NCBI GenBank assembly: GCA_016219285.1
Contig: JACRNJ010000051.1
Location: forward strand, 5,620 to 69,619
Direction of reading: 5' to 3'
Origin: Deltaproteobacteria bacterium
GTDB taxonomy: Bacteria > Desulfobacterota > GWC2-55-46 > UBA9637
Length of the DNA: 64,000 bases
Within the stretch, counting starts at the first letter, position 1. Each line of letters opens with the position of its first letter. Shown here one piece after another: positions 7,470 through 41,162 of this stretch. A program made the translations under genes and the position numbers. The notes under the pieces are model-generated. The model was not told the DNA's origin. It was given only the letters and a program-made list of their open reading frames with translations, and ran no database searches.

Positions 7470-10040
7470 TTATTCTATTACCACATTCAGTATCTTATTC
7501 TTCACATAAATCATCTTTTTTATCTCCTTGCCTGCCAGCCATTCTGTGATTTTTTTGTCCAACATGGCAATCTTTTCAACACCTTCCCGATCCATATCCA
7601 ATGGCACGTTGATGCGTCCCCTTACCTTGCCGTTTATCTGGACAACCACCAGCACCTCTTCCTTTCGCAAAGCTAACTCGTCATAGGCCGGCCACTGGGC
7701 TTTAAAGATATTTTCTTTTTTCCCAACCTCATGCCACAGCTCTTCGCACATATGCGGCGCAAAGGGAGAAAGAAGAAGCAGCAATATTTCAATGGCCTTT
7801 TTATATTCATAAGAATCTTTACTCTCATATTTTGAAAGAAAATTAATATACTCCATAAGAGCTGCTATGGCTGTGTTAAAGTGAAACCCTTCTAAATCTT
7901 CAGTTACTCTTTTAATAGCCCTATTCACCTCATATTTGAGCTCTGAATCTTGAGCATTTTCTTTTGCCCTTTGCCCCTTGCCCCTTGCCCCTTGCATTTC
8001 TGCCACCAGCCTCCACACCCTGTTTAAAAATCTGTGTGCCCCTTCCACTCCTTCATCACTCCACTCAAGGTCCTTTTCAGGAGGCGCAGCAAAAAGGGAA
8101 AATACCCGTGTTGTATCTGCACCGTATTTCTCAATAATCTTATCAGGGTCTACAATATTCTTTTTAGATTTGCTCATCTTCTCTTTAGCCCCTATTTCCA
8201 CAGGAGCGCCGCATTTTGCACAGTTGCCGTCCTTTAGCTCTTCAGGCAGAAGATAGCCGTGCTCTTTGCATTTTGTAATCTCCTTGCACACCATACCCTG
8301 TGTGAGGAGATTTATAAATGGCTCGTCAATATCTGTAAGTCCGAGATCCCTGATTGCCTTTGTAAAGAATCTTGAGTAGAGTAAATGCAGAACCGCATGT
8401 TCAACTCCTCCTATATACTGGTCAACAGACATCCAGTATTTAACAGCATCCTTACTAAAAGGGTTTGTGCCATCTTTTGGCGAGGTATATCTTAAGAAAT
8501 ACCACGATGAATCCACAAATGTATCCATTGTGTCAGTCTCTCTTCTTGCTTGCTTCCCACACTTAGGACATTTTGTTTTTATAAACTTATCTGACTGAGC
8601 CAAAGGAGAACCGCCTTCACCGGTAAACTTTACATCCTCAGGTAAAATTACCGGTAGATCTTTATAAGGCACTGGCACTATCCCGCAGGTGTCACAGTAT
8701 ATCATCGGTATAGGGCATCCCCAGTAACGTTGGCGTGATATACCCCAGTCCCTTAATTTATAACCAATAGATTTCTTTCCCATGCCCTTTTCTTCAAGAT
8801 GTTCTACGATTGCCTCCATTGTGTCTCTATTCTTCATCCCATTAAAAGGCCCGGAATTGACCATAATCCCGTCATCTACATAAGCCTCTTTCATGGTATC
8901 CGGACTTAACTCTTTGTCCGGCGGTTTGATGACAACAGCCATCGGAAGTTTATACTTCCTTGCAAACTCAAAATCACGCTGGTCATGGGTCGGAACTGCC
9001 ATAACAGCGCCTGTTCCATATTCCATCAAAACAAAATTGGCAGTGTATATAGGCATCTTTTTGTTGGTGAGTGGATTTATGCAGTATGAGCCTGTGAATA
9101 CGCCCTCTTTTTCCAGCAATGCCTCTGTTCTTGCGGTTCTGCTCTGTTTTTTTACTTTTTCTATAAACTCTCTCACCACCGGCCGCTGAGCACTCGTCAC
9201 TAATCGCTCCGCCATCGGATGTTCATGAGCAATGCTCATGAATGTTGCGCCGTAAAGCGTATCAGGTCTTGTGGTAAATACCTTTATGACCTCATTTGAA
9301 TTTTCAACTCCCTGCTTACCGCTTGTAGGGACAAGCTTAAAATCAACCTCAGCGCCTATGCTTTTACCAATCCAGTTTTTCTGCATAATCAAGACATTCT
9401 CAGGCCACCCTGGAAGTTTATCGCAATATTCTAAAAGTTCTTCGGCATAGTGTGTTATCTTGAAAAACCATTGCTCAAGATTTTTCTGTTCCACTTCACT
9501 GTCGCACCTCCAGCAAAGCCCCCCTTCCACCTGCTCATTTGCCAAAACAGTATGGCACTTGGGGCACCAGTTCACAGCAGATTGCTTTCTATAGGCCAGA
9601 CCCTTTTCATATAATTTCAAGAACAGCCATTGATTCCATTTATAATATTCAGGGCTGCATGTGGCAATTTCTCTGTCCCAGTCATAAGATAAACCCATCC
9701 TCTTTAACTGTTTTTTCATAAAGGCTATATTTTCATAAGTCCACTTTGCTGGGTGAACGTCATGCTGTATTGCGGCATTCTCAGCAGGCATACCAAATGA
9801 ATCCCAACCCATGGGATGAAGCACATTACAGCCCTTCATCCTTAAAAATCTTGCTGCCACATCCCCTATCGCATAATTCCTCACATGGCCCATATGTATC
9901 TTGCCTGAGGGATACGGGAACATCTCAAGGACATAATGCTTTTTCTTGGCCTTGTCTTCATCAACCTTAAATGCCTTTGTGTCTTCCCATATTTTCTGCC
10001 ACTTTTCTTCAATTTGCTTATGTTCGTATCTCTCCTGCAT
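7470..10040 (-). CDS. leuS: Leucyl-tRNA synthetase.
   Basis: HMGH (class I HIGH) and KMSKS motifs present, along with the CP1 editing domain and Zn-binding CxxC pairs. About 857 aa from Met MQERYEHKQ. Confidence 0.95.
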
Positions 10041-14519: not shown

Positions 14520-14884
14520 CAGGTTTTTCTCTTGAAAAGCAGTGGTGAGGTTTTGGTGGAGAGCTATGAACGGTGCGCTGTCCATAGATAAATTGATGGA
14601 AAAAGAAGGCGAGTTGTTTGGCAATAGCGATGAAAAAGTTGGCAGGTCTAAGTTTGCTTTATTCCCAAATGAACAGGGCAATATCTCAAAGGCGCTGGCG
14701 GTCTTCGCTTCAAAGGTTGAAAAGATTGTGGAGAGACAGAATGACGGGGACGGAAGGACATAAGGCGTACTTTTATAAGGATTTCATAACGGGACAAGTC
14801 ATCAAGAAATCAAGAAATATGATTCTTTATTTCTTGACAATGATTTTCTTGTTATGGTAACCCTTATGTGGAGGTTCACTGACT

Positions 14885-15124
14885 ATGAAGATAAAAGTAG
14901 GCACTGTTATGGATGAGGACATGGTATTCAAGGTAAAGGAGGCCGCCCTTACCCAGAGGAAGACTTTGAGCCAGATACTGGAAGATGCCTTGAAGGTTTA
15001 TCTGCAAGGACTGGAAAAGAAGGAAAAGAAGAAAAACCTGGCGCAGGATACCAGCGGGATAATGAAGATATCCAAGAAGGACCTTAAGGCAGTAATGGAA
15101 GAGAAAGGACTCTATGAGGCTTAG
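14885..15124 (+). CDS. Antitoxin-like small protein (VapB-like), partner of the downstream PIN protein.
   Basis: 79 aa, charged. The stop overlaps the start of the PIN gene. Typical type II TA organisation. Confidence 0.5.
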   Translation: MKIKVGTVMDEDMVFKVKEAALTQRKTLSQILEDALKVYLQGLEKKEKKKNLAQDTSGIMKISKKDLKAVMEEKGLYEA

Positions 15125-15617
15125 CAATATCAAGAGAGACGCTAATGTATTCATTGACGCAAATATCTTCATATATCACTTTACAGGCGCATCCAAAGAA
15201 TGCAGTGAGTTCCTGAAGAGATGCGAGCAAGGTGAGGTCTCCGGCATGACCTCTGTCATCGCCCTTCTTGAGGTGCTCCATAGATTGATGATGGTTGAAG
15301 CAGTCGGGAAAAAATTGGCGGCTCCGCCCAATATTGTTAAAAAACTTCAAAAACACCCGGAAAAAATTAAACAGTTAAAGGATTACTACTTGAATACCCG
15401 AAAGATTGCGGATATGGGGATAATCATCAAGCCGCTTACCTTTGAGACTGCGGAAAAGAGCAATTCATTCAGGACAGAATACGGCCTTATGGTAAATGAT
15501 TCAATCATTGCGGCAGGCATGGCGGAAGAGGGGATGGATTCTTTGGCGAGCAATGATGACGGATTCAGAAAAATCGGCAAATTTAAGGTCTATAGCCCTG
15601 GGGATGTGGAATTATAA
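15114..15617 (+). CDS. vapC: PIN-domain toxin (VapC family).
   Basis: VFIDANIFIY...D...NDSIIAAGMAEEGMDSLASND shows the PIN acidic residues. 167 aa, slightly long for VapC. Confidence 0.65.
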   Translation: MRLSNIKRDANVFIDANIFIYHFTGASKECSEFLKRCEQGEVSGMTSVIALLEVLHRLMMVEAVGKKLAAPPNIVKKLQKHPEKIKQLKDYYLNTRKIADMGIIIKPLTFETAEKSNSFRTEYGLMVNDSIIAAGMAEEGMDSLASNDDGFRKIGKFKVYSPGDVEL

Positions 15618-15797
15618 ATGCAGCAAAAGGGAAAGGTTGTTGTGGCAGTATCCGGAGAAAGGTCTATGAGCAAGTTCTTAAAAAGAAGGGCTGATAAATA
15701 TATACTGATAGACGATAACCAGACAGAAAAACACAAGCCGTATTTTTACCGGAATTTTTTGCGTTAAGGTTAAAACAAAATAACGGAGGCGGAAGTT

Positions 15798-16967
15798 ATG
15801 CTGGAGATTAAAAGCGGTAATCCATCAGATGCAGATGCCCCTGCATCGTATAACCGTTTTGTCCTTCCATTTGCTTATAATCTTGAAAAAATCACTTCTA
15901 AAGAAAAACAGAATCAATATTATGTCGCTGAAAATGATCCAGATAAAATCTGGAGGGAAAGATATCTAACCGAAGAAACTGCCGATGTTCTATTCCAGCG
16001 GACAAAATGGTTTGCATTGCAAAGCGATAACAAAGATCTGAAGTTTGACATACCAAAGACGGATGGCACTGGTTTTCTTACCGTCTGCATGAATCCTCCG
16101 AGGCTAGTGTTGTTTGAATGGCCTAAAAACATTGAAAACAGAAAAAAGGAAGAGGAAAAAAATACAGACTTGTTGCATACAGGTTTTCTTATTATAGAAC
16201 TTTACTTTGATAAGAGCGATGGAAATTGCCCAACACTGGATGACATGCTCAAGCTAAATGAAATGGAGTTTGATAAACAGGTCAAAGGCAATCGTTTTTC
16301 AATGCTGGCTGATTTGCTTGATAAGATGAAAGGTAACAAAGATTGGATGAATGGTGGTGAGTATCGTATAGAAACATTACTCTGGGGCGGCGACGAATTG
16401 ATGTGGGTTGTTCCTGCATGGAAGGGCTGGGAGACGCTTCAGTTCTTTTATGAGCAGTCAGGAACATGGGAGTTTACTAATACCAAAGGAGGGAAAGCCC
16501 CTCTTAAACATGCTGGCGGTCTGGTATTCTGTCATCACAATGCGCCTATCTACAGGATAAAGGATTTGGCAAGGAGGCTATCGGAGGCGGCAAAGAAGGA
16601 CAAATCCGGAAATCTGTTTGCCTATCAGGTATTGGAATCTTTTGACCATATCAGTAATGATTTCGACAAAATCCGCAAAAGTCAGGCTATAGGCGGTGAT
16701 GCGAATACTTTGATATTGGACGGGAAAGACATAGAAAATATCAGCAACAATATTAAGGCTCTCAAAGACAACGAATTTCCTAAAAATAAACTGCATGAGA
16801 TAACAAAGAGACTGAGAAATGGCGGGGATGCAAAGGATTTAATTGAAAAAGCCATAAAAGGATTATTAGTTGCCACGCAAACAGCGCTTGATAAACTCAA
16901 GGGTGATTGTAACGGCGACAACCCCAAATGGGGACATATCGCCGACCTGTGGGATTATATAGTCTAA
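15798..16967 (+). CDS. Miniature Cas10-like cyclase/palm-domain protein with intact GGDE motif. No HD domain and no second palm.
   Basis: RIETLLWGGDELMWVVPAW matches the Cas10 GGDD..h..GAW motif. Downstream AGGLVFCHHNAPIYRIKDLARRLSEAAKK matches the Cas10 SAGI.I.HHK.PLY..L..A..LL..AK segment. Helical C-terminal ~130 aa. Confidence 0.55.
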   Translation: MLEIKSGNPSDADAPASYNRFVLPFAYNLEKITSKEKQNQYYVAENDPDKIWRERYLTEETADVLFQRTKWFALQSDNKDLKFDIPKTDGTGFLTVCMNPPRLVLFEWPKNIENRKKEEEKNTDLLHTGFLIIELYFDKSDGNCPTLDDMLKLNEMEFDKQVKGNRFSMLADLLDKMKGNKDWMNGGEYRIETLLWGGDELMWVVPAWKGWETLQFFYEQSGTWEFTNTKGGKAPLKHAGGLVFCHHNAPIYRIKDLARRLSEAAKKDKSGNLFAYQVLESFDHISNDFDKIRKSQAIGGDANTLILDGKDIENISNNIKALKDNEFPKNKLHEITKRLRNGGDAKDLIEKAIKGLLVATQTALDKLKGDCNGDNPKWGHIADLWDYIV

Positions 16968-16986
16968 AAAAGGACAGGAGAAAATT

Positions 16987-18879
16987 ATGTTTAACATAAC
17001 ATTGACTGTAACCCTGACACTTGAAGGGCCGATACTCACCAAATCCACATCCATGGGTGGATACGGGTTGGATGCTGTAATGGCAAAAAATCATAACGGA
17101 GAATATTATCTGCCGGGCACATTGGTAAAAGGCAGGCTACTGCAGGCATGGCAGGAACTGCATGATGTGGTTGGCTCTGATTATAAAACATTGCTTGATG
17201 TAGATAAGCAGCTTGATGATTTTGCTAATTTGTGGCTCGGTAAAAAAAGTGGAAGCAGGAAAGACAGAGGGGCTGTTGATTCTTATAGGACAAAGATTCA
17301 TTTTACTGATTTTATCTATGCACCAGAAGCCAAAGCAGGCAGTACTCTTCATCGTATCCATATAGATAAGGATAGAGGTTCTGTAATAAAGGGAGCATTA
17401 TTAGTTATGGAAGCCCCCTTTGCAGTAGGTGAAGAAGTTGCATTTAAAGGGTCTATCAGTTTTACAACAATAAACAATGCCGAAGCTGCTGCGGTTAAGA
17501 AATGCGTGGATATTGGCTTAAAATGGATACCCAACTTTGGTAGTGAAAAGACCGTAGGTTTTGGGCGCCTCGTTAGAGTGTCAATAGATGAAAAATCTTT
17601 TCAAATTGTAGATGCTCACAGCGATGCATTGGGGAAAGAATTTCTGTACATCATTATCAACCCAGAAGCCCCCTTTTGTTTTGCCAAACGGCAGGTGAGC
17701 GATAACCTGTTCGAGTCGGAAGATATAATATCCGGTGGAGCAATCAAAGGAGCATTGGCGAGTACATGGGCAGGATTACTCGGCAAAAGCGGACATATTG
17801 AAATCACGAATGGTTTTGATAATAACAGGAAAGAATTGTCAGAGCATTTTCATGAAATCCGTATTACGCACGCATTCCCTATGCCTGTTGAAAGGAATGA
17901 GCGGCCTGTTGTTGCCCCGCTTTCATTAGCTAAGGTAAAAAAGAACGAAGAAGAAAAGGAGATTAAAGCCAATTATGATGTTGCTTTTGAGAAGGAGGCA
18001 AGATTGATTAATGGCTTTCCCGATAATGCCCCTGCTTTTGCCGTTGACTGGAAGGATAGCACAGATATAGAAAAAATCTTTGGTTGGGATGATAAGCCAA
18101 AGCGCGAACTGCGTGTCCGAACAGCGATGGATAGAGAAAGGCGTAAATCTAAAGATAAAGAGTTATTCGCTTATGAAATGGTTATCCCAACAGGCTTTAA
18201 GTGGGTGAGCCGAATTGACTTGAGCCGAATTACAGATGCAACAATTCGGGCAAAGGTGGAAGCCCAGCTCCGTCAACTTTTATCTCTGGGATTGATTGGA
18301 ATGAGCAAGAACAAAATATCGGCAAAAGTTGAGCCTGCTGATACTCATATAGAAAATAAAATAAAATCTGTCTGTGAACCTATAAACAGAAACGGACAGA
18401 AATATTGGGTAATCACTCTCCAAACTCCGGCAATCCTGTGTAATCCAACTGAGCTTAATGAAATAAGCACCAGTGAGGATTTATTTAATAATTATAAAAA
18501 AGTCTGGGACAAATTATCCAGTAGCACATTGGAATTATCCCATTTCTTTGCTACACAGTCTTTGGCAGGCGGTTACTATCTGCATAAGCGGTTTCAGGAC
18601 GGAAAGCCATATCGTCCTTATCTGCTGACAAACGCAGGCTCTGTATTTGTCTTTACTGAAAAAAGGGATGCAAAGGGCGTAATAGAAAAATGGCTGAAAA
18701 ACGGGTTGGATTTCCCACAGTGGGCAAAAAAAGAGTATGGTAAAGACGGAAAAGAAGACGGTGAATGCTGGCAAAACTGTCCCTATATCCCTGAAAACGG
18801 CTATGGTGAGATTGCTGTAAATATCCATCAGTCTTATTCGAATAATGCGGAAGGGGAGGTGAAAATCAATGTCCTTTAA
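16987..18879 (+). CDS. Fused double-RAMP protein (Cas7/Cas5 superfamily, two RRM-like domains).
   Basis: YYLPGTLVKGRL and ISGGAIKGALAS are RAMP P(G/S)xxKG-type loops. G-rich loops GSEKTVGFGRL and LGLIGM. C-terminal CWQNC. Confidence 0.55.
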   Translation: MFNITLTVTLTLEGPILTKSTSMGGYGLDAVMAKNHNGEYYLPGTLVKGRLLQAWQELHDVVGSDYKTLLDVDKQLDDFANLWLGKKSGSRKDRGAVDSYRTKIHFTDFIYAPEAKAGSTLHRIHIDKDRGSVIKGALLVMEAPFAVGEEVAFKGSISFTTINNAEAAAVKKCVDIGLKWIPNFGSEKTVGFGRLVRVSIDEKSFQIVDAHSDALGKEFLYIIINPEAPFCFAKRQVSDNLFESEDIISGGAIKGALASTWAGLLGKSGHIEITNGFDNNRKELSEHFHEIRITHAFPMPVERNERPVVAPLSLAKVKKNEEEKEIKANYDVAFEKEARLINGFPDNAPAFAVDWKDSTDIEKIFGWDDKPKRELRVRTAMDRERRKSKDKELFAYEMVIPTGFKWVSRIDLSRITDATIRAKVEAQLRQLLSLGLIGMSKNKISAKVEPADTHIENKIKSVCEPINRNGQKYWVITLQTPAILCNPTELNEISTSEDLFNNYKKVWDKLSSSTLELSHFFATQSLAGGYYLHKRFQDGKPYRPYLLTNAGSVFVFTEKRDAKGVIEKWLKNGLDFPQWAKKEYGKDGKEDGECWQNCPYIPENGYGEIAVNIHQSYSNNAEGEVKINVL

Positions 18880-20248
18880 AAATCGCTGGCGTATTGAGGG
18901 TATGCTCACTACTATAAGCCCGCTCCATATTGGCAGCGGGGATACTACAACCCGTGACAAAATATTAGACGAGAAGAAAAAAAAGAAAGCAGATATAGCA
19001 GCGGTTGCAACCGACCACGAAAACAAGCCGTATCTCCCCGGCTCAACACTGAAAGGCAATCTGCGTGCTTATCTTCGAAATAACGGACAGGATAAAAATG
19101 TTATAGATAAATTATTCGGTGCTGAAGACCCCAAGGCCAAAGATAGCTGCGGCGGGGCATTGGAGTTTTGGAATGTGAGGGTTGTTGATATGTCATCAAC
19201 ATTTGATGGGAAGAATGTCCCATACTGGTGTAAAGACCGCCTAACAGGAGTTACCGCATCTGCGGTCATAGACAGGCAGACCCGCACAGCAGCGAACCAG
19301 AAACTCTTTTACACTGAATATGTACCGAAGGGGATAGAGTTTAATGTCGTTATCACAGGGCAGGATTTGGATGATAAGGAAATTGCATTACTCATACATG
19401 CCCTGAATGGTTTCAAAGATGGCGGAGTTAATCTCGGCGCGGGGGAGGCGGATAACTGGGGTGGGTTTAGTTGGGAGTTAGAAACGGTCAAATGTATAGA
19501 GACGGATGATATTAAAAAGTGGCTTGCTAACCCTGATACTGTTGGGTATGAGATGATTAGTAATATAGGTAGAGATAAAAAAACAGATGTTGAATATATT
19601 GAAAAGCAACTAAAGCAATCCAAACCGGATATACTGTCACTTGCTTTTACTTTGACTTTTGATAGCTCATTTTTGGTAAACGATACAAGCAGGGACAGGG
19701 ATGCTAAAGATGGCACTGGTAAGAAAAAATTTGCTGACCACTACCCGCTTACAGATACAAGTGGGAAAGTGATACTCCCTTCAAAGTCTATCAGAGGGGC
19801 ATTCCGAAGTCAGGCGGAGCGGATACTGCGGACTATCGGTGGCGGGCAAGCTGCCTGTATAGACCACGAAAAAGCTGAAAGAAAAGCCTGCCCTTCAGTT
19901 TATGAAGTTGAAAAAGTTAAGGATAGTTGCCCCGCCTGTCAGGTTTTTGGATTATCCGGCTGGCGTTCTCCTGTGCAGTTCAGCGATTTTACCTATGTTA
20001 AGAATGGTGGAATAAAACGGCAACAGTTTGTTGCCATTGACAGATTTACCGGCGGCGGTGTTGACAGGGCGAAATTTGATGCAGATTATGCAGACCGTCC
20101 GGTATTGGAAGGTACTATTGCCATAGATATGACAAGATTGAGAAAAACGAAAGCGATAGGCTGGGGGCTTGGACTGGTTGCCTTGACTCTGCGAGACATG
20201 ATAGAGGGTGATGTTACTTTGGGTCTGGGCACATCTAAGGGTTACTGA
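18869..20248 (+). CDS. Fused double Cas7 (Csm3/Cmr4-like) protein with treble-clef zinc finger.
   Basis: ISPLHIGSGD...PYLPGSTLKGNLRAYL is a classic Csm3/Cmr4 N-terminus. Second domain ILPSKSIRGAFRS. C-x-C...CPAC-QVFG zinc finger. G-rich loop LGLGTSKGY. 11 nt overlap with the upstream gene. Confidence 0.65.
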   Translation: MSFKNRWRIEGMLTTISPLHIGSGDTTTRDKILDEKKKKKADIAAVATDHENKPYLPGSTLKGNLRAYLRNNGQDKNVIDKLFGAEDPKAKDSCGGALEFWNVRVVDMSSTFDGKNVPYWCKDRLTGVTASAVIDRQTRTAANQKLFYTEYVPKGIEFNVVITGQDLDDKEIALLIHALNGFKDGGVNLGAGEADNWGGFSWELETVKCIETDDIKKWLANPDTVGYEMISNIGRDKKTDVEYIEKQLKQSKPDILSLAFTLTFDSSFLVNDTSRDRDAKDGTGKKKFADHYPLTDTSGKVILPSKSIRGAFRSQAERILRTIGGGQAACIDHEKAERKACPSVYEVEKVKDSCPACQVFGLSGWRSPVQFSDFTYVKNGGIKRQQFVAIDRFTGGGVDRAKFDADYADRPVLEGTIAIDMTRLRKTKAIGWGLGLVALTLRDMIEGDVTLGLGTSKGY

Positions 20249-20345
20249 ACCTGTACAGTAAAAATTAAAGATAGTGATTTTAATATATTGAAAGAGAAAT
20301 TAAAGGAATGTCCTGATTGGTATAAAAACTTACTTAAATTTTTGT

Positions 20346-21179
20346 TTGAGGGTAAAAATCATGAGTAAAAAAAATAAAAGGAAAACATTCACTTCATTTC
20401 AGGCGCTGAATGAAGAGATGCAAAAAAGTTATAACGCAGGGAACCGGCGGTCTCAGTCCAAAGTCGCCACTGCTCCACAGCCCAAAACACAACTGAAAAA
20501 TGGAGGAAAACAAACTATGCCGGCACACACAAATAATAATACCAGCACATGGGATAACTTTCACAATCCATATCATTTTGTACCTGCAAAACAAAGTGGA
20601 AGGATTGATGATTTATGCCTTACTGCCTTTGATGACCGCCAACTCAACCATGTAACCCATGATCTATATGTTGACAACACCCACTCCGGCAGAGTTATCT
20701 GCCGCCTGACTGCGAAGTCCCCATTTTTTGTGGGAGATGAACGAACAAAAGAGGCTTCGGAAGAAGCGCCTGCCGAAGTTTCTAATTTTGAGATTGACGG
20801 GAAACCGGCTATACCGGCGTCATCCTTGAGAGGACTAATCTCCAACATTGCAGAAGCAGCGAGTAATTCGGCGATGAGGGTGATGGAAAACAGGTATTAT
20901 TCATATCGTGTCAATATGAGAAAGGGTTTGGGTTCATTAGGTATGATAATAAAAAATGATGACGGATATTATAGACTCCGACCCCTATCCCTGCCATCTC
21001 TATCATGGAATGATACACGTAACGAGGCAACTGTTGCACCTAAGTATAATAAAATGTTCACAACAGGTTTGCTAAAAGTTTATATAGATGGTTATCGAAA
21101 AAAAACCGAGTACAAATCCTACAGAAATGGAAATAAATCCAGGTTCTTTTCTTGCCGCCCCAAACCTAAAATCTTATAG
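20346..21179 (+). CDS. RAMP protein, N-terminal part (Cas7-like). Probably continuous with the next ORF via a frame change at the A8 run 21098-21105.
   Basis: GKPAIPASSLRGLISN RAMP loop and KGLGSLG G-rich segment. Overlaps the next ORF out of frame by 92 nt. Confidence 0.5.
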   Translation: MRVKIMSKKNKRKTFTSFQALNEEMQKSYNAGNRRSQSKVATAPQPKTQLKNGGKQTMPAHTNNNTSTWDNFHNPYHFVPAKQSGRIDDLCLTAFDDRQLNHVTHDLYVDNTHSGRVICRLTAKSPFFVGDERTKEASEEAPAEVSNFEIDGKPAIPASSLRGLISNIAEAASNSAMRVMENRYYSYRVNMRKGLGSLGMIIKNDDGYYRLRPLSLPSLSWNDTRNEATVAPKYNKMFTTGLLKVYIDGYRKKTEYKSYRNGNKSRFFSCRPKPKIL

Positions 21180-22734
21180 CGCTGATAATAATGAATACTG
21201 GTATATAAAAATTATTCCTTCAGCCGCTTTAACTGGTAATACTATTACCTGCAGAAATCCAAGAATTAAAACGATTACCAGTAGGGACGGCAGAGAAAGT
21301 AAATTTCTTAATGGGCAACTTGCCACCGGTGTGCCGATTAGCGAGGCTGAATATATCAAAAAAGGTAAACCGGCAGGTTATGAACGTGGTATCTTAAAAA
21401 TACTTAACATTAGGGAAAAAGATATTCCGGCCGGCAAATGGCATGAAATATTTTTACTTTATCGGGATGGAATTGAAGATAATCTGCCAACCTTTGAGGC
21501 AACAGATGCCGTAGAACAATTCCATGCTTTAGCCATGGAACGAACCCGTGAAGATGAAAAATTGCCGTTTGAGTTAAAGGGTTCAAACCGAAATTCTAAT
21601 CCATCAAAAGACAATCAAGGGATTGAACTTCGCACGGGCGACATTGTTTTTTTTGAGCCTGATAAAAATGACTATTCTAAAGTGGGAGAAGTCTCAGTAT
21701 CCTCTATCTGGCGGCACAGTGCGGGAGGAACCAGTCATGACTATTTTAATGCAATCTCCCCGGAAACCCTGCCTTTTAATCCAAAACGCAACTCTATCTC
21801 TATTGCCGAGCAGATGTTTGGCTTTGTAGAGCAGGATTTTTCAGAGTATAAATCCCTTATTAAAAATCGCCAGGCAAGGGCACTTGCTGGAAGACTCAGA
21901 TTTTCTCATGCGAAAGAAGGCAAGGATAACGGCTCAAACTGTTATATTGCTCCCATAACGCTTAAAATACTCGACAGCCCAAAGCCGCCCTCACCTGACA
22001 TGTACTTTAAACATAATAGTGGTGCTGGCGGTTATATCAGCAAACAAGAACTATCACCAAAAAAACATCATCCCCATGGACGAAAGTTTTATCTGCATCA
22101 AAAACAGGACGACAAACCATGGGAGACTCTGAAGCCCAACGATCACTGCAAGCAAAAAGTCAAAATAACACCAGTTAAGGACGAGGCTGTTTTTTATTTT
22201 CACATAGATTACGACAATCTTAGTGAACTTGAACTGGGATTATTGCTATATTCTCTCAATCCGTCAGACACCTTCCGGCATAAACTTGGAATGGGGAAGC
22301 CGATCGGACTTGGCACTGTCAAAATAGAGCCTGTGGGTCTGTTTACTGTTAATAGAAAAGACCGCTATTCTAAACAGACTGCAAATCTATTTAATGAGAA
22401 ACGGTATCACAATGCATGGGTGAAGGATGGAACTAATTCATGGCCTCCTATTTATGACCGTGAAAAGACAGAATATGGAGATGGAAGCTTACTCATTAAG
22501 TTAGATTATGAAAAGATTAAGAAAGACTTTGCAGACAAAATGGATAAAGATATACAAAAGGCTCTGGAGATTTTGGGCGACCCGGCAAAAGTAACAATCC
22601 CTGCTGTCCATTATCCGCAACTCAAAGGTAAGGATATAGAAAATGAAAACTTCAGATGGTTCGTAAAAAATGATGACCGTAATAATACGAATAAGCAGTT
22701 TTTAGAGCCGATAAAACTTACTGGTTTAAAATGA
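21088..22734 (+). CDS. Large RAMP protein, C-terminal part, with long insertion (Csm5/Cas5-like capping subunit candidate).
   Basis: C-terminal G-rich loop KLGMGKPIGLGTVKIEPVG typical of RAMPs. In +1 frame relative to the upstream ORF. Confidence 0.5.
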   Translation: MVIEKKPSTNPTEMEINPGSFLAAPNLKSYSADNNEYWYIKIIPSAALTGNTITCRNPRIKTITSRDGRESKFLNGQLATGVPISEAEYIKKGKPAGYERGILKILNIREKDIPAGKWHEIFLLYRDGIEDNLPTFEATDAVEQFHALAMERTREDEKLPFELKGSNRNSNPSKDNQGIELRTGDIVFFEPDKNDYSKVGEVSVSSIWRHSAGGTSHDYFNAISPETLPFNPKRNSISIAEQMFGFVEQDFSEYKSLIKNRQARALAGRLRFSHAKEGKDNGSNCYIAPITLKILDSPKPPSPDMYFKHNSGAGGYISKQELSPKKHHPHGRKFYLHQKQDDKPWETLKPNDHCKQKVKITPVKDEAVFYFHIDYDNLSELELGLLLYSLNPSDTFRHKLGMGKPIGLGTVKIEPVGLFTVNRKDRYSKQTANLFNEKRYHNAWVKDGTNSWPPIYDREKTEYGDGSLLIKLDYEKIKKDFADKMDKDIQKALEILGDPAKVTIPAVHYPQLKGKDIENENFRWFVKNDDRNNTNKQFLEPIKLTGLK

Positions 22735-23540
22735 TTAACATAGAAAAACTCACCTTCTTCCTCGGCGGCCACGACCTCGAAATGCTCACTATTCGTGAGA
22801 TTCTTGAAGAACATGCGCCGGGGCGGTTCTTTGACAAAGGGCTTTCGTGGGGCGCGAAGGCTTCGGATTACAGGAAAGAAATTCAGGAGGTTCTTGCAAA
22901 TGGCAGGGTTCCGGTTCTGGTTGAGTTGACGCTTGACATGGAGATTGATGAAGGGCTGACCATAATCATAGACCATCATGGAGAAAGGGCAGGGTCGGAT
23001 AATCCAACATCTCTCCATCAGATTTTTGACCTCCTGAATCTGCCGCAGGATAAATGGACTCGGTGGTTTGACCTGGTTGCCGCCAATGACCGGGGGTATA
23101 TTCCCGCCATGCTTGAAACAGGCGCTACGCAAGAGGAGATAATAAAGGTTCGGGCAGCGGATCGCGCTGCGCAGGGGATTACGGCGGAGGAAGAGGCTGA
23201 AGGAGAAAAGGCGGCGGCAAACGCAGAGGTCTTTGCCGACGGGATGCTCACATTAGTGTGCCTGCCGCATACACGGACAGCAACTGTTGCCGACCGTCTG
23301 GAGGCATCCCTTGGCGGTCCTGGGTACAAAAACCTCCTGATTATTTCACCGACACAGGTAAATTTCTTCGGAGCCGGAAAACTTATATATGTCCTTGATG
23401 AGGCATTCCCCGGCGGCTGGTATGGCGGGGCGTTGCCGGAGAGGGGCTTTTGGGGTCACGGCAATCCTGTGCCGGATGTAATGCCGTTACTTATGGATAA
23501 GTTATGCTCTTTGACAACCAGAAATATAAATGGGAAGTAA
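22731..23540 (+). CDS. Hypothetical metal-dependent phosphohydrolase-like protein (H-D and D-H-H motifs), translationally coupled to the RAMP gene. Locally high GC.
   Basis: ATGA overlap with the upstream stop. Motifs LGGHDLE and IIIDHHGE. Visibly more GC-rich codons than its neighbours. Confidence 0.35.
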   Translation: MINIEKLTFFLGGHDLEMLTIREILEEHAPGRFFDKGLSWGAKASDYRKEIQEVLANGRVPVLVELTLDMEIDEGLTIIIDHHGERAGSDNPTSLHQIFDLLNLPQDKWTRWFDLVAANDRGYIPAMLETGATQEEIIKVRAADRAAQGITAEEEAEGEKAAANAEVFADGMLTLVCLPHTRTATVADRLEASLGGPGYKNLLIISPTQVNFFGAGKLIYVLDEAFPGGWYGGALPERGFWGHGNPVPDVMPLLMDKLCSLTTRNINGK

Positions 23541-23580
23541 GAAGTAAGAAGTTAAAACTTCCTATTTCCCATTTCCCGTT
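23530..23580. repeat. Left inverted repeat of the four-helix-bundle gene cassette (AAATGGGAAGTAAGAAGTAAGAAG...).
   Basis: Reverse-complement partner at 23960-24010. Confidence 0.5.
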
Positions 23581-23605
23581 TGTCACTTGCTTTACTTGGA
23601 TACAA

Positions 23606-23962
23606 ATGGGAAGTAAAAATGAAGAGCTTGGAAAACGGTTTTATGATTTTGCATTAAGGATTATAAGGCTTGTTAGAAAGTTGCCTAAGGAGATAGCAGC
23701 CAACGAAATAGGCAGGCAATTATTGAGGTCAGGCACCTCAATTGCCGCCAACTATGAAGAAGCCACCGGCGCATTCAGCAGGGAAGATTTTACTTATAAA
23801 CTGAGTATAGCCTTTAAAGAGACCAAAGAAACAACATTGTGGTTAAGGCTTCTACGCGATTCCGGTATAAGTGGCGATGAGATCGGGGATATTATTAAGG
23901 AATCGGAGGAAATCAGAAACATTCTTGGCAAAAGTGTGAAGACTGCAAAAGAAAACAGGTAA
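23606..23962 (+). CDS. Four-helix-bundle protein (family commonly found in 23S rRNA intervening sequences).
   Basis: ~118 aa, FYDFALRIIRL...SIAANYEEATGA...ETKETTLWLRL are typical of this family. Flanked by inverted repeats. Confidence 0.7.
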   Translation: MGSKNEELGKRFYDFALRIIRLVRKLPKEIAANEIGRQLLRSGTSIAANYEEATGAFSREDFTYKLSIAFKETKETTLWLRLLRDSGISGDEIGDIIKESEEIRNILGKSVKTAKENR

Positions 23963-24328: not shown

Positions 24329-25693
24329 ATGCAAAAAAACAGCTTAAGGGAACTCCCGTCAGTTGACGAAGTTTTGAGGTCTGATAGACTGCAAAAATGC
24401 GCAGATTTATATTCAATAGGCCTTGTTACGGAGATTGTTAGAGATATTCTTAAGAAAATGAGAGGGAAAATTATTGACGGTCATACTATTGACATTTCTC
24501 CAGAAAAGATAGAAGCGCTTGCCAATAATTATCTTGAAGATATGCTCAAACCATCCCTCAAAAAGGTTGTTAATGCATCTGGCGTAGTCCTGCATACAAA
24601 CCTTGGAAGGGCAATATTATGCAATGAGGCAATTGAGGCAATCAAGATTGCTGCCTGCCATCCAGTGAACCTTGAGCTTAATTTGGAAGAAGGTGAAAGA
24701 GGAAACAGAGACGGTCATTTAGAAGATATATTGTGCCGTCTTACAGGCGCAGAGGCAGCTACAATTGTAAATAACAATGCAGCCGCACTCTTTTTAATAT
24801 TGAATACATTGGCTGAAGCAAAAGAGGTTATTATCTCCAGAGGTGAGCTTGTGGAAATAGGAGGTTCTTTTAGAATCCCTGAGGTGATACAAAAAAGCGG
24901 ATGTAAACTTATAGAGGTTGGCACAACTAACATGACGCATCTATCAGATTATATATCTGCTGTCAATCCAGATACTGCCTTGCTTCTAAAAGCGCATACA
25001 AGCAACTACAGGATAATCGGTTTTACCTCAAATGTAGATTTGAAGGAGGTGGTAAAAATTGGAATGCAGCACAGCATCCCGGTAGTTGAAGATTTAGGAA
25101 GCGGTTCACTGATTGACTTGTCGCAATTTGGCCTTCCCTCTGAACCTCAAGTCAAAAAAAGTATTGAGGCTGGAGCGGATGTGGTTACCTTTAGCGGGGA
25201 TAAACTGCTTGGCGGCCCTCAGGCAGGCATTATTGTTGGAAAAGAGAATTACATCCGTAGGATAAATAAAAACCCTTTAAAGAGGGCATTAAGGGTAGAT
25301 AAACTTACTATTGCGGCTATGGAGGCAACACTTAAGCTTTATCTGAAACCAGATACGTTGCCCGCCAAACTTCCAACTTTGAGATTTTTAACAAGACCTG
25401 TTCCAGAAATAACGTTGATTGCAGAGGAGGCTTCAAGACTTCTTAAACAAAGGCTTGGCAAGGACTACTTTGTGGAGGTTGAGAACGGCGAAAGCAAGAT
25501 AGGAAGCGGTTCGCTGCCCGAAGAGATAATTACTACAAAGGTTGTTTCTATTACACATAAGCAAATACCGTTAAAAAAAATCTTCGATATGTTTTTGAAA
25601 AACAACCCGCCTATTTTGGGCAGAGTGCACAAAGGAAAGTTTTTATTGGATATGCGTATGATAGAAAAGGCTGAAGATGTGGTGATTAAATGA
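24329..25693 (+). CDS. selA: L-seryl-tRNA(Sec) selenium transferase SelA.
   Basis: N-terminus LPSVDEVLRSDRL is the SelA signature. ~454 aa PLP fold. GGPQAGIIVGK motif. Confidence 0.8.
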   Translation: MQKNSLRELPSVDEVLRSDRLQKCADLYSIGLVTEIVRDILKKMRGKIIDGHTIDISPEKIEALANNYLEDMLKPSLKKVVNASGVVLHTNLGRAILCNEAIEAIKIAACHPVNLELNLEEGERGNRDGHLEDILCRLTGAEAATIVNNNAAALFLILNTLAEAKEVIISRGELVEIGGSFRIPEVIQKSGCKLIEVGTTNMTHLSDYISAVNPDTALLLKAHTSNYRIIGFTSNVDLKEVVKIGMQHSIPVVEDLGSGSLIDLSQFGLPSEPQVKKSIEAGADVVTFSGDKLLGGPQAGIIVGKENYIRRINKNPLKRALRVDKLTIAAMEATLKLYLKPDTLPAKLPTLRFLTRPVPEITLIAEEASRLLKQRLGKDYFVEVENGESKIGSGSLPEEIITTKVVSITHKQIPLKKIFDMFLKNNPPILGRVHKGKFLLDMRMIEKAEDVVIK

Positions 25694-30774: not shown

Positions 30775-33201
30775 ATGCAAAACAAATTTTTAAAAATACT
30801 AAATGAACGTCCTATCCTCTTTGACGGCGCTACCGGCACAATGCTTCAGAGGCTTGGGCTAAAGCCAGGCGGCTGCCCTGATGAGCTTAATATCACAAAT
30901 CCCATTATGATAAAGACAGTTCACAAAGGATATATGGACGCAGGCTCTGATGTTGTTACAACATGCACATTTGGCGCCAATAGAACCAAGCTAATGGAAT
31001 ATAATCTTGAAAACCAACTCCATGAAATAAATCTCAAGGCAGCGAAAAACGCAAAAGAGGCAGCCGGTGAAGATAAATTTGTTGCAGGCGGACTTGGGCC
31101 AACCGGCAGGTTTTTGGAACCTGTAGGCAACCTGTCATTTGATGAGGCAGTGGATATATTTTCGGAACAGGTTAATGCGCTTGCACAAGGCGGCGCTGAT
31201 TTAATTATCATTGAAACGATGATGGACATAAGAGAGATGAAGGCGGCAATCATTGCTGCGAAGGCATCTGGCCTGCCGGTAGTGGCAACAATGACCTTTG
31301 ATGAGACAATGAGAACGGTGCTCGGCACTCCGCCAGAGGTGTTTGCCATAGTTGCAGAGAGTCTTGGCGCTGACGTTATTGGCGCTAATTGCAGCCTTGG
31401 AATAGAAGGAATCTATAAGGCTGTTAAGGCCATGAGCGGGGTTACAAATCTCCCTTTAATTGCACAGCCTAATGCAGGCATACCGTATCTAAAAGACGGG
31501 AAAACAATATTCCCTGCCAGCCCTTCCGAGATGGCAGACTATGTGCCGAAACTTTTGGATGCAGGCGTCAGGATAATAGGCGGCTGCTGCGGCACAACGT
31601 CGGAGCATATAAAGGAGATGAAGTCAGAAGTCAGAAATAAAAAGTCAGAAATCAAAAGTCAGAAGTCAGAAATAAAATCAACAAGACTTGCAAGCCGCTC
31701 AGGATTTGTAGACTTTGGAAATGGCCGGCCATCTGTAATTGTGGGTGAAAGGATAAACCCGACCGGCAAAAAGCTCTTTCAACAAGAAATCAAAGAAAGG
31801 AAAACATCTACCATCCGTAAAGAGGCAAAGTCTCAGGCTGATGCAGGCGCACATATCCTTGATGTAAATGTCGGAGTGCCTGGAATAGATGAGTCTGCAT
31901 CAATGCAGATGGCGGTCTTTGCAGTTAATGAGAACTGCCAGCTACCCATAGTTCTGGATTCCTCAAGTCTTGAAGCCTTAGAAATAGGTCTAAAGGCAGT
32001 TGACGGGAAGGTGCTGATAAACTCGGTAAGCGGGGAGGAGAAAAAGTTAAGCACAATCCTTCCTCTGGCAAAAAAATACGGAGCTGCTGTGCTCGGCTTG
32101 ACACTGGATGACAATGGGATACCCGCGACGGCAGAAGCAAGGGTTTACATCGCTGAAGCCATATTAAAGAGGGCGCTGGAATGCGGAATTTCAAAATCCG
32201 ATGTTGTAATAGATTGTCTTGCAATGACTGTAAGCGCGGATCAGAAATCTGCAATGGAAACGCTCAAGGCAATAAGGATGGTCAAGGAAAAACTAGGGCT
32301 TTCAACCATCCTCGGTGTAAGTAACATCTCATTTGGCCTTCCAAACAGGGAGATAATAAATGCAAATTTTCTGACAATGGCAATTGAGGCAGGTCTTGAT
32401 GCTGCCATAATCAACCCTCATAATAATTTGATGATGGATGCGTATCATGCTGCGCTTGTGCTGACTGGCTATGATTTGAGGGCAGAGAGATATATAAAGA
32501 GATATGGCCAGAAGTTAGAAGTTAGAAGCCAGAAGTCAGAAGAAAAAGAAGAACCCAAAACAATTGATGAAAAGTTGAAGAAGGCGATTATAGGCGGTGA
32601 TGAGGAAGGGATTGTTGCATTGGTAGAAGAGGCTTTGAAACAAGGATGGGACCCGTTGAAGATAAGCAATGCGGGGCTCATACCTGGACTTGAAGAAGTT
32701 GGACGATTGTTTAATAAAAACATTTACTTTCTGCCGCAGGTTATGCTTTCTGCCGATACCATGAAAAGGGCGTTTGACAGATTGAAAAAAGAGTTTAAAG
32801 GGAAAAAAACACAAAGCATGGGCAAGGTTTTGATGGCAACTGTTGAAGGCGACATTCACGATATCGGGAAGAATATTGTATCCACACTATTAGAAAATCA
32901 TGGTTTTGAAGTCATTGATTTGGGAAAAAATGTCCCTGCCGATAAAATAATACAAGAGGCTGTAAAAAACAATGTGGATGTGGTAGGCCTGTCAGCCCTG
33001 ATGACGACAACGGTTATGGAAATGGATAATGTCATAAAAAGGCTTAAGGCAAAAGGCGTGCCTGTCCTGACCATGGTCGGAGGCGCTGTGGTAAATCAGG
33101 AGTTCGCAGACAAGATAGGCGCAAATGGTTATGCCAAGGATGCGCTGGAGGCGGTTGATAAGGTGAAAAGACTGGTTAAAAAGGAGAAGCAGCATGCATA
33201 A
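30775..33201 (+). CDS. metH: Cobalamin-dependent methionine synthase MetH, short form lacking the activation domain.
   Basis: Hcy-binding domain (GGCCGT), pterin-binding domain, B12-binding motif DIHDIGKNIV...G in 808 aa. Two low-complexity linker inserts. Confidence 0.9.
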   Translation: MQNKFLKILNERPILFDGATGTMLQRLGLKPGGCPDELNITNPIMIKTVHKGYMDAGSDVVTTCTFGANRTKLMEYNLENQLHEINLKAAKNAKEAAGEDKFVAGGLGPTGRFLEPVGNLSFDEAVDIFSEQVNALAQGGADLIIIETMMDIREMKAAIIAAKASGLPVVATMTFDETMRTVLGTPPEVFAIVAESLGADVIGANCSLGIEGIYKAVKAMSGVTNLPLIAQPNAGIPYLKDGKTIFPASPSEMADYVPKLLDAGVRIIGGCCGTTSEHIKEMKSEVRNKKSEIKSQKSEIKSTRLASRSGFVDFGNGRPSVIVGERINPTGKKLFQQEIKERKTSTIRKEAKSQADAGAHILDVNVGVPGIDESASMQMAVFAVNENCQLPIVLDSSSLEALEIGLKAVDGKVLINSVSGEEKKLSTILPLAKKYGAAVLGLTLDDNGIPATAEARVYIAEAILKRALECGISKSDVVIDCLAMTVSADQKSAMETLKAIRMVKEKLGLSTILGVSNISFGLPNREIINANFLTMAIEAGLDAAIINPHNNLMMDAYHAALVLTGYDLRAERYIKRYGQKLEVRSQKSEEKEEPKTIDEKLKKAIIGGDEEGIVALVEEALKQGWDPLKISNAGLIPGLEEVGRLFNKNIYFLPQVMLSADTMKRAFDRLKKEFKGKKTQSMGKVLMATVEGDIHDIGKNIVSTLLENHGFEVIDLGKNVPADKIIQEAVKNNVDVVGLSALMTTTVMEMDNVIKRLKAKGVPVLTMVGGAVVNQEFADKIGANGYAKDALEAVDKVKRLVKKEKQHA

Positions 33202-33673: not shown

Positions 33674-33878
33674 AACAACCTGTTGATTTCTGACAATATC
33701 GGCAGACATGCTTAAATCAGCCTCCCGCCTTACAAAGACTCCATCTTCCGCGGCGGATTCGGCCATGCATTCAAGAAAGTTGTATGCACCATAAGAAACA
33801 AGGATTGTGACAACTGCCTCCTTAAATCAAAATGTATCTATTCTTATGCGTTTTAAATGACAATAATTAATAAAATAG

Positions 33879-34379: not shown

Positions 34380-34454
34380 GGGCGGTTAACTCAGCGGCAG
34401 AGTGTCACCTTCACACGGTGGAAGCCACTGGTTCAAATCCAGTACCGCCCACCA
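34380..34454 (+). tRNA. tRNA-Val (anticodon CAC).
   Basis: Cloverleaf folded by hand: acceptor GGGCGGU/ACCGCCC, anticodon loop UUCACAC, T-loop GGUUCAAAUCC, CCA encoded. Confidence 0.85.
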
Positions 34455-34508: not shown

Positions 34509-35510
34509 TTAATCCATATCTGCCGCTTCGGCTAAATTCTTCGCAACAATAATTGCGCCATACCTGTCAATTGAATTTGCGGCAACAACTTGTCTCCTTA
34601 ACAATTTGCGTTGAAACGCAACCTCTTTTGCCACAGCATCCGCCATCTTTTTTGAGGTTGTAATAAGTATGCTTGATGCCATCTCATCATGCTCTGCCTG
34701 AGAAAGCAAATCCGCAGCTATCCAGCCGGGCTCGCCAGCGCCGTCATTTATAATTAGTATCTCGCTTGGTCCGGCAACCATATCAATATCCACGATGCCG
34801 AACACAAGCCTCTTTGCAGTCGCAACATAGATATTGCCGGGACCGACAATCTTATCCACCTTTGGGATGGTCTCTGTGCCATACGCAAGGGCAGCAATGG
34901 CCTGGGCTCCGCCTGTCTTATATATTTTGTCAACCCCTGCAATCTCTGCCGCCGCAAGGACATACGGGTTTATCCCGTTCTTGGACGGCGGCGTTACCAT
35001 AACCACCTCTTTAACGCCAGCAGCTTTAGCAGGTATTGCATTCATCAAGACAGTGGATGGGTAAACGGCCTTCCCTCCAGGAACATAGATGCCAACTTTT
35101 TCAATGGGGGTAATCATCTGCCCTAACACAGTTCCATCTCCTTCAGCAAATGCCCACGATTTTGTGAGTTGTCTTTTGTGAAATAACTTTATTCTCTTTG
35201 CGGCAAGTTCCAATATTTTTAAATCATTCATGGGAATCTTTTGCAGCGCTTTTTTGATTCCTCTTTTTTCTACCATCAATTCTTTGCCCTTAAGCCTGAC
35301 GCCGTCAAACTTTTCTGTATACTTCAAAATACTTTTATCGCCATTCTGTTTTACATCTTGCAGAATAGCCTTTACAACCTCCTCCGTACGGCTGGTATCG
35401 GACTCCCCCCTTTTAATGATGGCATCCATGGTTTTCGTAAAACTTTTTTCCTTTGTATAAAATATCTTCATGGCTATCACATTATACAAGAGGCAAGAGG
35501 CAAGAGGCAA
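34509..35510 (-). CDS. hisD: Histidinol dehydrogenase, apparently truncated at the C-terminus (~55-60 aa short).
   Basis: Motifs VGIYVPGG, GGAQAIAALAYG, GPSE, AEHD present. The ORF stops ~50 aa after AEHD, 55 nt from tRNA-Val, with no room for the missing part. Confidence 0.6.
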   Translation of the reverse strand: MPLASCLLYNVIAMKIFYTKEKSFTKTMDAIIKRGESDTSRTEEVVKAILQDVKQNGDKSILKYTEKFDGVRLKGKELMVEKRGIKKALQKIPMNDLKILELAAKRIKLFHKRQLTKSWAFAEGDGTVLGQMITPIEKVGIYVPGGKAVYPSTVLMNAIPAKAAGVKEVVMVTPPSKNGINPYVLAAAEIAGVDKIYKTGGAQAIAALAYGTETIPKVDKIVGPGNIYVATAKRLVFGIVDIDMVAGPSEILIINDGAGEPGWIAADLLSQAEHDEMASSILITTSKKMADAVAKEVAFQRKLLRRQVVAANSIDRYGAIIVAKNLAEAADMD

Positions 35511-35543
35511 GGTTTTCTTGCTTCCAACTTCCTGCCTCCGGTT

Positions 35544-41150: not shown

Positions 41151-41162
41151 ATGCAGCAAGCA

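Follow-up and report, generated by a model that had tools for sequence, protein, structure and literature searches.

The structure of a type III-D2 CRISPR complex was determined by cryo-electron microscopy (cryo-EM) in 2026 (PDB 9WXH; PMC13294483). Chain C of this complex is Cas7-5, in which Cas7.1, a modified RRM with a thumb hairpin and the catalytic Asp29, is connected through linker L1 to Cas5, which consists of two modified RRMs (N-RRM and C-RRM) with a beta-rich Lid between them (PMC13294483). D29 is the single target-RNA cleavage site, and the D29A substitution abolishes cleavage; in phage defence, D29A had no effect and Cas10 mutants lost defence (PMC13294483). Residues E8, N11, L12, S29, L33, S123, and Q186 in the N-terminal part of Cas10 bind S-adenosylmethionine (SAM), a zinc finger was reported only in Cas7.3 of the neighbouring protein and not in Cas7-5, and III-D2 loci typically include VapBC-like modules (PMC13294483). 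Cas7-5 fusions have been in the literature since at least 2022, and the way they work was explained by the 2026 study. Here, we analysed a stretch of 64,000 nucleotides (nt) from the assembly GCA_016219285.1 of a Deltaproteobacteria bacterium (contig JACRNJ010000051.1, positions 5,620 to 69,619; hereafter, the window), which carries a cas7-5 gene. Its product is almost certainly an N-terminal Cas7 (Cas7.1) fused to a C-terminal Cas5, that is, a subunit of a type III-D2-like effector. Taken as a whole, the data are very probably best read as the Cas7-5 of such an effector surviving intact in a recently inactivated locus.

Identity and Domain Architecture of Cas7-5

The cas7-5 open reading frame (ORF) is intact and occupies positions 16987..18879 of the + strand (630 codons, 630 amino acids (aa), ATG start), exactly as given in the initial annotation, with a Shine-Dalgarno sequence AGGAG 8 nt 5' of the start. 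The protein is identical to the NCBI entry [quoted passage not shown] A phmmer search against PDB showed that aa 3-614 were collinear with residues 3-608 of 9wxh_C, a chain of 635 aa (E=3e-120, 43% identity, 248 identical columns of the 582 aligned), and the family profile matched the same chain at E=1.4e-190. The earlier view of the protein as a subunit of a reduced type III effector thus agrees with this match to the Cas7-5 of the III-D2 complex. The family comprises at least 262 proteins at E<=1e-5, nearly all of which are 600-635 aa long.

The two parts of the protein were recognised by separate models. Pfam RAMPs matched aa 9-195 (E=2e-11) and the PADLOC Cas7/Csm3 models covered the N-terminal ~200 aa; in the C-terminal part, Cas5_IIId matched aa 224-562 and Cmr3 aa 311-588, with the matches of the Cas5_IIId, Cmr3, and Csx10 models all lying within aa 223-588. 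The PADLOC model "Csm4, CAS-III-D effector_G5" matched the full length (E=4e-86), and a precomputed Pfam Cas_Cmr3 match was carried by several homologues. The family profile also matched Csm3 chains (E=0.005-0.03) and aa 18-199 of 8s9t_A. The domains and sequence motifs of the protein are as follows.

16987..17604, + strand: Cas7.1 domain, aa 1 to ~206 (boundary approximate), with RRM core, thumb hairpin region (~aa 100-145), and catalytic loop
17641..18828, + strand: Cas5 domain, aa ~219-614 (boundaries approximate), with N-RRM, Lid, thumb hairpin, and C-RRM up to the NGYGEIAVN loop
aa 40-51: motif YYLPGTLVKGRL
aa 185-195: motif GSEKTVGFGRL
aa 248-259: motif ISGGAIKGALAS
aa 594-598: motif CWQNC

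The predicted secondary structure of Cas7.1 was beta-alpha-beta...beta-alpha-beta. The initial annotation had proposed a Cas7-Cas7 or Cas5-Cas7 fusion; the Cas5_IIId and Cmr3 models and 9wxh_C support the combination of Cas7 and Cas5, but the order of the domains is Cas7 followed by Cas5. Its description of two RRM/RAMP halves holds as far as a fused RAMP protein is concerned and is otherwise a simplification, since the Cas5 part of the solved homologue itself holds two RRM modules and the Lid, which brings the total to three RRM-like modules.

The conservation of the motifs was assessed in an alignment of 113 Cas7-5 homologues. G49, G185, G193, G250, and G605 were invariant, and P43, K254, and G255 were retained in 103, 93, and 107 of the 113 sequences, respectively. 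The two P/G-x-x-K-G loops that had been noticed in the sequence (YYLPGTLVKGRL and ISGGAIKGALAS) are therefore features of the family and more than chance resemblances. A glycine-rich loop was likewise found in each half, namely GSEKTVGFGRL and a second one, NGYGEIAVN, at the C-terminus (aa 604-612), which the initial annotation had not quoted. The proposal of a C-terminal Cys pair in each half was not borne out: the six cysteines are at positions 173, 231, 463, 485, 594, and 598, the N-terminal half has no pair, and in the only pair, C594/C598, C598 alone is conserved (108/113), whereas the column of C594 mostly contains His (49) or Asp (30) and Cys is not among its common residues. A zinc site at this pair was ruled out on the same grounds. 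Four ORFs overlapping cas7-5 (three antisense and one out-of-frame on the same strand) had no family match and were treated as spurious; among these is the following.

18535-19059, - strand: spurious overlapping ORF, 174 aa, no family match

Functional Residues and Predicted Structure

The residues published for the solved Cas7-5 were mapped onto the window protein through the phmmer alignment to 9wxh_C. Of the 18 residues in contact with RNA or ligand, 13 were counted as identical and the other five as conservatively changed. The correspondences are given below, with the solved protein first and the window protein second.

Catalysis: D29 = D29, GAT codon at 17071-17073, + strand (codon checked)
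Thumb: R119 = R123, I120 = I124, I134 to L138, V135 to L139
Contacts with the 5' tag of the CRISPR RNA (crRNA), first part: K50 to R50, Q53 = Q53, S86 = S88, R231 = R235, T255 to S259, F281 = F288
Contacts with the crRNA 5' tag, second part: I374 to M381, F387 = F394, Y522 = Y531, L523 = L532, W589 = W595
Lid: L337 to V353, W351 = W367

The column of Asp29 contained D in 93 of 112 family members. When the protein was checked for signs of decay, none appeared: it deviated from the family at 10 of 175 conserved columns, the family median being 12.

An AlphaFold2 model of the full-length protein, built from the 113-sequence alignment, had a mean predicted local distance difference test (pLDDT) score of 88.9 and a predicted template modelling (pTM) score of 0.90. 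In a Foldseek search of a library of PDB structures to April 2026 that did not contain 9WXH, the top match was 8s9t_A, named Cas7-Cas5-Cas11 by its depositors (E=5.6e-26, TMq 0.61). It was followed, in this order, by Cas7-2x, Cas7-11 (E~1e-10 to 1e-9), and chains of Cmr and Csm complexes, of which 3x1l_B, 6s8b_H, 9g9a_G, and 9g9f_E were assigned as Cmr3, Csm4, and Csm3 by their length and not by depositor names. The structure prediction that had been suggested for each half was run on the whole protein, and matched the III-Dv Cas7-Cas5-Cas11 and then the Cmr and Csm chains. The last 150 residues were predicted to be mixed alpha/beta, ending in the NGYGEIAVN loop, and not to form a helical bundle; thus, Cas7-5 has no Cas11 domain.

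By analogy with the solved complex, the Cas5 part would bury the 5'-OH end of the crRNA and clamp its 8-nt 5' tag, and Cas7.1 would be the first backbone unit, starting the Cas7 filament, with its thumb flipping target nucleotide 6. Asp29 would cleave the target RNA at one site, lying between positions 5 and 6, and the Lid together with Cas5 would dock Palm1 and the Linker of Cas10. In a complete system, target binding may be expected to make Cas10 produce SAM-AMP/SAM-AMP2, which would act on the CorA membrane effector, and an NrN enzyme would degrade the SAM-AMP signal and presumably reset it.

Organization of the cas Operon

Besides cas7-5, the operon in the window includes the following genes.

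14885-15124, + strand: DUF6364/RHH-like antitoxin, 79 aa (DUF6364 E=7e-4, weak RHH_1)
15114-15617, + strand: PIN toxin, 167 aa (Pfam PIN E=2.7e-12)
15798-16967, + strand: CorA'-'Cas10 chimeric ORF, 389 aa (weak Cas10 Palm2 match; GGDE at 16386-16397)
18869..20368, + strand: cas7-2x (Cas7.2-Cas7.3), with an uninterrupted ORF at 18869..20248 of 459 aa (9wxh_D residues 16-457, E=1.5e-76)
20361..22734, + strand: cas7.4 with insertion domain, in ORFs 20346-21179 and 21088-22734 (TIGR03986 of NCBIfam on both; 9wxh_D residues 812-1199)
22731..23540, + strand: NrN-like DHH phosphodiesterase, 269 aa, intact (PDB NrN 9lq9 E=8e-27; PADLOC "DHH_CorA" E=9e-43)

The operon is headed by the toxin-antitoxin pair, both genes of which are intact. 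The cas7-5 and cas7-2x genes overlap by 11 nt, and an overlap of equal length was found in the related loci L006 and L007. Cas7-2x and Cas7.4 resembled 9wxh_D (E=1.5e-76 and 6e-73) far more than they did the III-Dv chains (E=2e-11 and 1e-8). The NrN-like protein, which was 69% identical to the product of the gene in the same position of the related locus L002, is presumed to be a SAM-AMP off-switch. Directly 3' of the operon lie genes for a four-helix-bundle protein of the "23S rRNA intervening sequence" family and for SelA (23504-23962 and 24329-25693, both +). The rest of the window carries housekeeping genes, including leuS, a selA homologue, rpsA, a metH-like gene, greA, and others, and the GC content was alike within and outside the cas locus. 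A scan for promoters and terminators at 14.3-24.3 kb was uninformative, since their count was no higher than in shuffled sequences.

Lesions in the Neighbouring Genes

A tblastn comparison of the proteins of related loci with the window revealed three lesions in the genes around cas7-5. The first is the chimeric ORF. Its aa 1-156 correspond to the N-terminus of a CRISPR-associated CorA (residues 1-145 of the L002 protein L002_542, 48% identity; L010_544, 39%), and aa ~144-389 match the C-terminal half of Cas10 (residues 235-477 of the L006 protein, 64%; L001, 58%). Against the Cas10 of the solved complex, 9wxh_B, the chimera aligned only at residues 322-579, which include part of Palm2 and the Cas11-like C-terminal domain (CTD). 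The junction, between "...LKLNE" and "MEFDKQ...", is near nt 16265; it is in frame, with the corA start codon kept. A deletion of ~1.9 kb has placed the ~156 initial codons of corA in front of the ~233 final codons of cas10. It eliminated the two membrane helices of CorA, Palm1 of Cas10, and the segment "YLDGNGFG", which in relatives comes before the portion of Cas10 kept here; the part of Cas10 bearing the published SAM-binding residues of 9WXH was lost as well. No hydrophobic 19-mers were present in the chimera. Its N-terminal 156 aa matched nothing in Pfam or NCBIfam, and the CorA origin follows from homology to L002_542 and L010_544, which in turn match L006_433 and L001_781; these two scored 27.5 and 26.4 bits with Pfam CorA (gathering cut-off 27) and both have two C-terminal hydrophobic helices. 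Among 761 homologues of the chimera, none besides itself extended over more than ~80% of the ORF, the coverage being ~60% for most; the others were Cas10 proteins of ~460-530 aa. The architecture is therefore unique in this set, which indicates a one-off event and not a family.

The second lesion is a premature TGA in cas7-2x at 20246-20248, in place of a Gly of the loop "GFGxSKGYG" of relatives. Homology continues in frame for 39 codons past it, to a TAA at 20366-20368 that overlaps the natural cas7.4 ATG at 20361 (ATGAGTAA). Reading of TGA as Gly (code 25) was ruled out, as TGA ends 5 of the 25 long ORFs in the window. Decoding as selenocysteine was considered because selA lies 4 kb downstream; it was ruled out, as the 81 nt around the codon folded no better than shuffled sequences (z=-0.17), with no SECIS-like fold after the stop, and an Rfam search of the region around the TGA gave nothing. 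The third lesion is a frameshift (+1 A) in cas7.4 within an A8 run at 21098-21105; a run of A7 would restore "GYRKKPSTNP...", collinear with relatives.

Per-run Logan assemblies of SRR12113394 and SRR12113407 matched the window with 100% identity along 7.6 and 6.2 kb, all three lesions included.

Comparison with Related Loci

Related loci were obtained through homologues of Cas7-5 and the contigs that encode them; a scan of a genome contig collection with peptide patterns of Cas7-5 found no relatives. The loci are listed below with the identity of their Cas7-5 to the window protein and, in parentheses, protein lengths in aa.

L001, 63%: NrN-CorA fusion (781), Cas10 (481), Cas7-5, Cas7-2x (495), Cas7.4 (769), antitoxin, Cas6
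L002, 58%: CorA (542), Cas10 (479), Cas7-5, fused Cas7x3 (1312), NrN (261)
L006, 60%: core alike; Cas7-2x and Cas7.4 split
L007 and L008, 47% and 44%: core alike, Cas7-2x and Cas7.4 split; S_4TM replaces CorA
L010, 50%: CorA (544), Cas10 (460), Cas7-5, Cas7-2x (473), Cas7.4 (734), NrN (261)

Cas7-2x and Cas7.4 were encoded by two genes in five of the six sampled loci (L001, L006, L007, L008, and L010) and fused in L002. Neither a frameshift nor a chimeric architecture was found in the relatives. The ancestral operon would have had the order toxin-antitoxin, CorA, Cas10, Cas7-5, Cas7-2x, Cas7.4, and NrN, as in L010. The NrN genes of L002 (15819-16604) and L010 (12085-12870) stand at the end of the operon, and in L001 (3-2348) a protein of 781 aa carries NrN as an N-terminal fusion to CorA.

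In two more distant loci, the position of CorA upstream of cas10 is taken by S_4TM (L007, 6038-8511; L008, 7426-8492), with an additional SMODS and a SLATT-like gene in L007; a SLATT_4 gene was found nearby in L009 (13055-13585). The occurrence of such genes suggests effector exchange within the III-D2-like clade.

The repeats in related loci end in ATTGAAAC. CRISPR arrays were found in L007 and L008, where the repeats end in ...GGATTGAAAC, which fits the 8-nt crRNA tag of the solved structure. In the 64-kb window, no direct-repeat CRISPR array, no Rfam CRISPR repeat family, and no relic of the GGATTGAAAC-type repeat were found. A complete cas6 was not found in the window either, only a fragment (ISLPPYKDSIFRGGFGHAFKKVVCTIRNKDCDNCLLKSKCIYSYAF, 46 codons, 33716-33853, +) that matched the N-terminal part of PADLOC Cas6 (E=6.7e-16) and shared 46% identity with the L001 Cas6. 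Stop codons flank this piece, which sits between greA and trxA at a distance of 10 kb from the cas operon. Just 5' of the toxin-antitoxin pair, a Cmr1-like ORF of 73 codons ("VRFWWRAM...ELFG," 14542-14763, +; PADLOC E=3.9e-6, model positions 43-86 only) appears to be what is left of a type III-B gene.

State of the Locus

Palm1 and the CorA pore are missing; thus, the signalling arm of the system cannot work as encoded. The inactivation looks recent, because each damaged neighbour has a single lesion and homology is kept beyond it. Most likely, Cas7-5 has outlasted, still intact, the recent inactivation of its defence locus and no longer belongs to a working signalling effector; the locus has probably lost its function. 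Several observations weigh against this interpretation. GGDE and the Cas11-like CTD are still present in the chimera, and Cas7-2x is shortened by no more than 39 aa, so that residual RNA targeting is possible. There is no relaxed constraint in cas7-5, which fits very recent decay and continued use alike. Of the 93-kb contig, which belongs to a metagenome-assembled genome (MAG), 64 kb lie in the window; crRNA could be provided in trans by an array, a cas6, or a second type III system located elsewhere. In addition, a frameshift at an A7 run (41665-41671) interrupts the gene of a SAM hydroxide adenosyltransferase (41137-41965, +); because this is the second poly-A frameshift in the window, the one at the A8 run might stem from systematic homopolymer errors or from variation in the population and not from a fixed mutation.

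A different explanation, which we consider quite unlikely, is the following: the locus may still encode an RNA-cleaving effector without signalling, in which Cas7-5, the short Cas7-2x, and Cas7.4 assemble on crRNA from an array elsewhere, the chimera serves as a Cas11-like small subunit, and Cas7.4 is restored by slippage at the A8 run, in parallel to the Cas10-less type III-E. Cas7-5 indeed keeps D29 and all the tag-binding residues without an excess of deviant positions, the reading frame and the corA start codon are preserved in the fusion, and each damaged gene has only one lesion. Slippage can be supported by A8 runs, and in the solved complex the Cas11-like CTD, which the chimera retains, touches Cas7.1, Cas7.4, and the target RNA. 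However, the deletion removed Palm1 and the Linker, two of the three Cas10 surfaces that touch Cas7-5, and Cas7-2x, cut short by its stop codon, lacks the strand that follows the glycine-rich loop. The absence of the frameshift and the chimera from relatives argues against a conserved design, the window contains no array or complete cas6, and the other cas genes nearby are fragmentary. Moreover, RNA cleavage alone gave no phage defence in the homologous system. That the chimera and the shortened Cas7 proteins form a natural "Cas10-minimised" effector, with Palm2-CTD as the Cas11-like subunit and crRNA supplied in trans, is quite improbable; if true, it would be a snapshot of a signalling III-D system losing Cas10 function on the way to III-E-like RNA-targeting effectors.

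It is very improbable that the lesions are artefacts of sequencing or assembly and that the organism has an intact III-D2-like system with a normal Cas7-5. The source of the sequence is a MAG, and the second poly-A frameshift (A7, 41665-41671) and a truncated histidinol dehydrogenase gene in the window hint at homopolymer errors or local misassembly. Nevertheless, the two per-run assemblies were concordant at all three lesions, and an in-frame, gene-joining deletion of ~1.9 kb and a substitution of the GGA to TGA type are atypical of assembler errors. Among 5.8 billion proteins, there was no intact allele with >90% identity; the cluster of the chimera had one member, and the nearest Cas10 was 74% identical. 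Finally, a Cas7-Cas7 double fusion or a III-Dv-style Cas7-Cas5-Cas11 in place of Cas7-Cas5 is scarcely credible: Pfam finds two RAMP stretches, some PADLOC "Csm3" models extend over the whole protein, and the top Foldseek match is the III-Dv chain, but the C-terminal part matches Cas5_IIId, Cmr3, and Csx10 models (with Pfam Cas_Cmr3 in several homologues), the solved homologue consists of Cas7.1 and Cas5 without Cas11, the protein has 630 and not 791 aa with an RRM-like mixed alpha/beta end, the profile matches only the Cas7 part of 8s9t_A, and the true Cas7-2x is the next gene.

Other Features of the Window

Of the 411 positions of its profile, the ORF for histidinol dehydrogenase (34509-35510, -) spans only 2-303, and it ends beside a tRNA-Val gene (34380-34454). 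The truncation may be a scar of rearrangement or integration, or a misassembly. Short tandem arrays of heptanucleotides (TTGCCCC, GAAGTCA, CAAGAGG, AATCTTG, and CTTCTGA; 3.6-7.4 copies) were found at 7964-7995, 31620-31677, 35487-35511, 37829-37861, 37920-37952, and 62283-62314, some of them within the ORF coordinates of leuS, the metH-like gene, and hisD.

Significance of the Findings

The window protein, itself uncharacterised, is an orthologue within a family already characterised in structure and biochemistry, and the gene alone adds little to what is known. What the analysis documents is a CorA-linked III-D2-like system in decay, with a unique in-frame corA-cas10 deletion fusion. The accompanying observations are modestly useful and would not surprise a specialist. 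In this clade, Cas7.2-7.3 and Cas7.4 are more often two genes than one Cas7x3, and Cas7-5 is always fused. The boundary between III-Dv and III-D2 is therefore blurred, and fusion or fission of the Cas7-2x and Cas7.4 modules may have occurred more than once. According to a classification paper of 2025, III-D loci do not encode the known enzymes that cleave SAM-AMP (PMC12669027); genes of NrN-type phosphodiesterases, free or fused to CorA, do occur in the III-D-type loci described here.

Comparison with Known Type III Systems

In types III-A and III-B, the same two roles, the backbone RNase unit and the clamp of the 5' tag, are performed by the separate subunits Csm3 and Csm4 or Cmr4 and Cmr3, respectively. 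Since Cas7 and Cas5 of the window form a single polypeptide present in a single copy, the active site of Cas7.1 is fixed at one position of the guide. Cas7-11 (gRAMP) of type III-E, a type that according to reviews derived from III-D2, also carries fused RAMP domains on one chain; however, it has no Cas5 domain and no Cas10 partner, whereas the window protein has only one Cas7 domain.

The Cas7-Cas5-Cas11 protein of the Synechocystis type III-Dv complex (8S9T chain A; Schwartz et al., bioRxiv 10.1101/2022.06.13.496011) has the same order of Cas7 followed by Cas5, with the catalytic Asp in the Cas7 loop at D26 (D29 in the window protein), and is likewise followed by separate genes for Cas7-2x and for a Cas7 with insertion. 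The identity between the two proteins is ~15%, and the profile match (E=0.04) is confined to the Cas7 part. The III-Dv chain has 791 aa with a Cas11 domain, whereas the window protein has 630 aa and lacks it. Furthermore, the Cas10 of III-Dv carries GGDD, unlike that of the window system, which carries GGDE and is linked to CorA and NrN. A csx19 gene was not recognised, all ORFs at 14885-23540 being assigned to other families; no search with a Csx19 model was made.

[quoted passage not shown] The neighbours are alike as well: Cas10 with GGDE, Cas7 proteins of the TIGR03986 family, a PIN toxin-antitoxin module, and CorA, in the window as a fragment. The differences concern several components. 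The Cas10 of 9WXH has 592 aa, as against ~460-500 aa in the relatives of the window locus, and the window operon is followed by an NrN gene, unlike the 9WXH locus. The definition of III-D2 includes a complete Cas10 (Palm1, Linker, Palm2, and CTD) and a CorA effector, whereas the window keeps only the residues equivalent to 322-579 of Cas10 and a 156-aa N-terminal fragment of CorA without membrane helices. The VapBC-like module that also belongs to the definition is intact in the window, but of the CRISPR array and the Cas6 that would supply a crRNA with an 8-nt 5' tag, the 64 kb contain only the cas6 fragment. Lastly, the 9WXH locus encodes Cas7x3 in one gene, whereas the window has separate cas7-2x and cas7.4 genes. 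By the published definition of III-D2, with its fused Cas7x3, the locus is a split-gene variant, which is common among its relatives.

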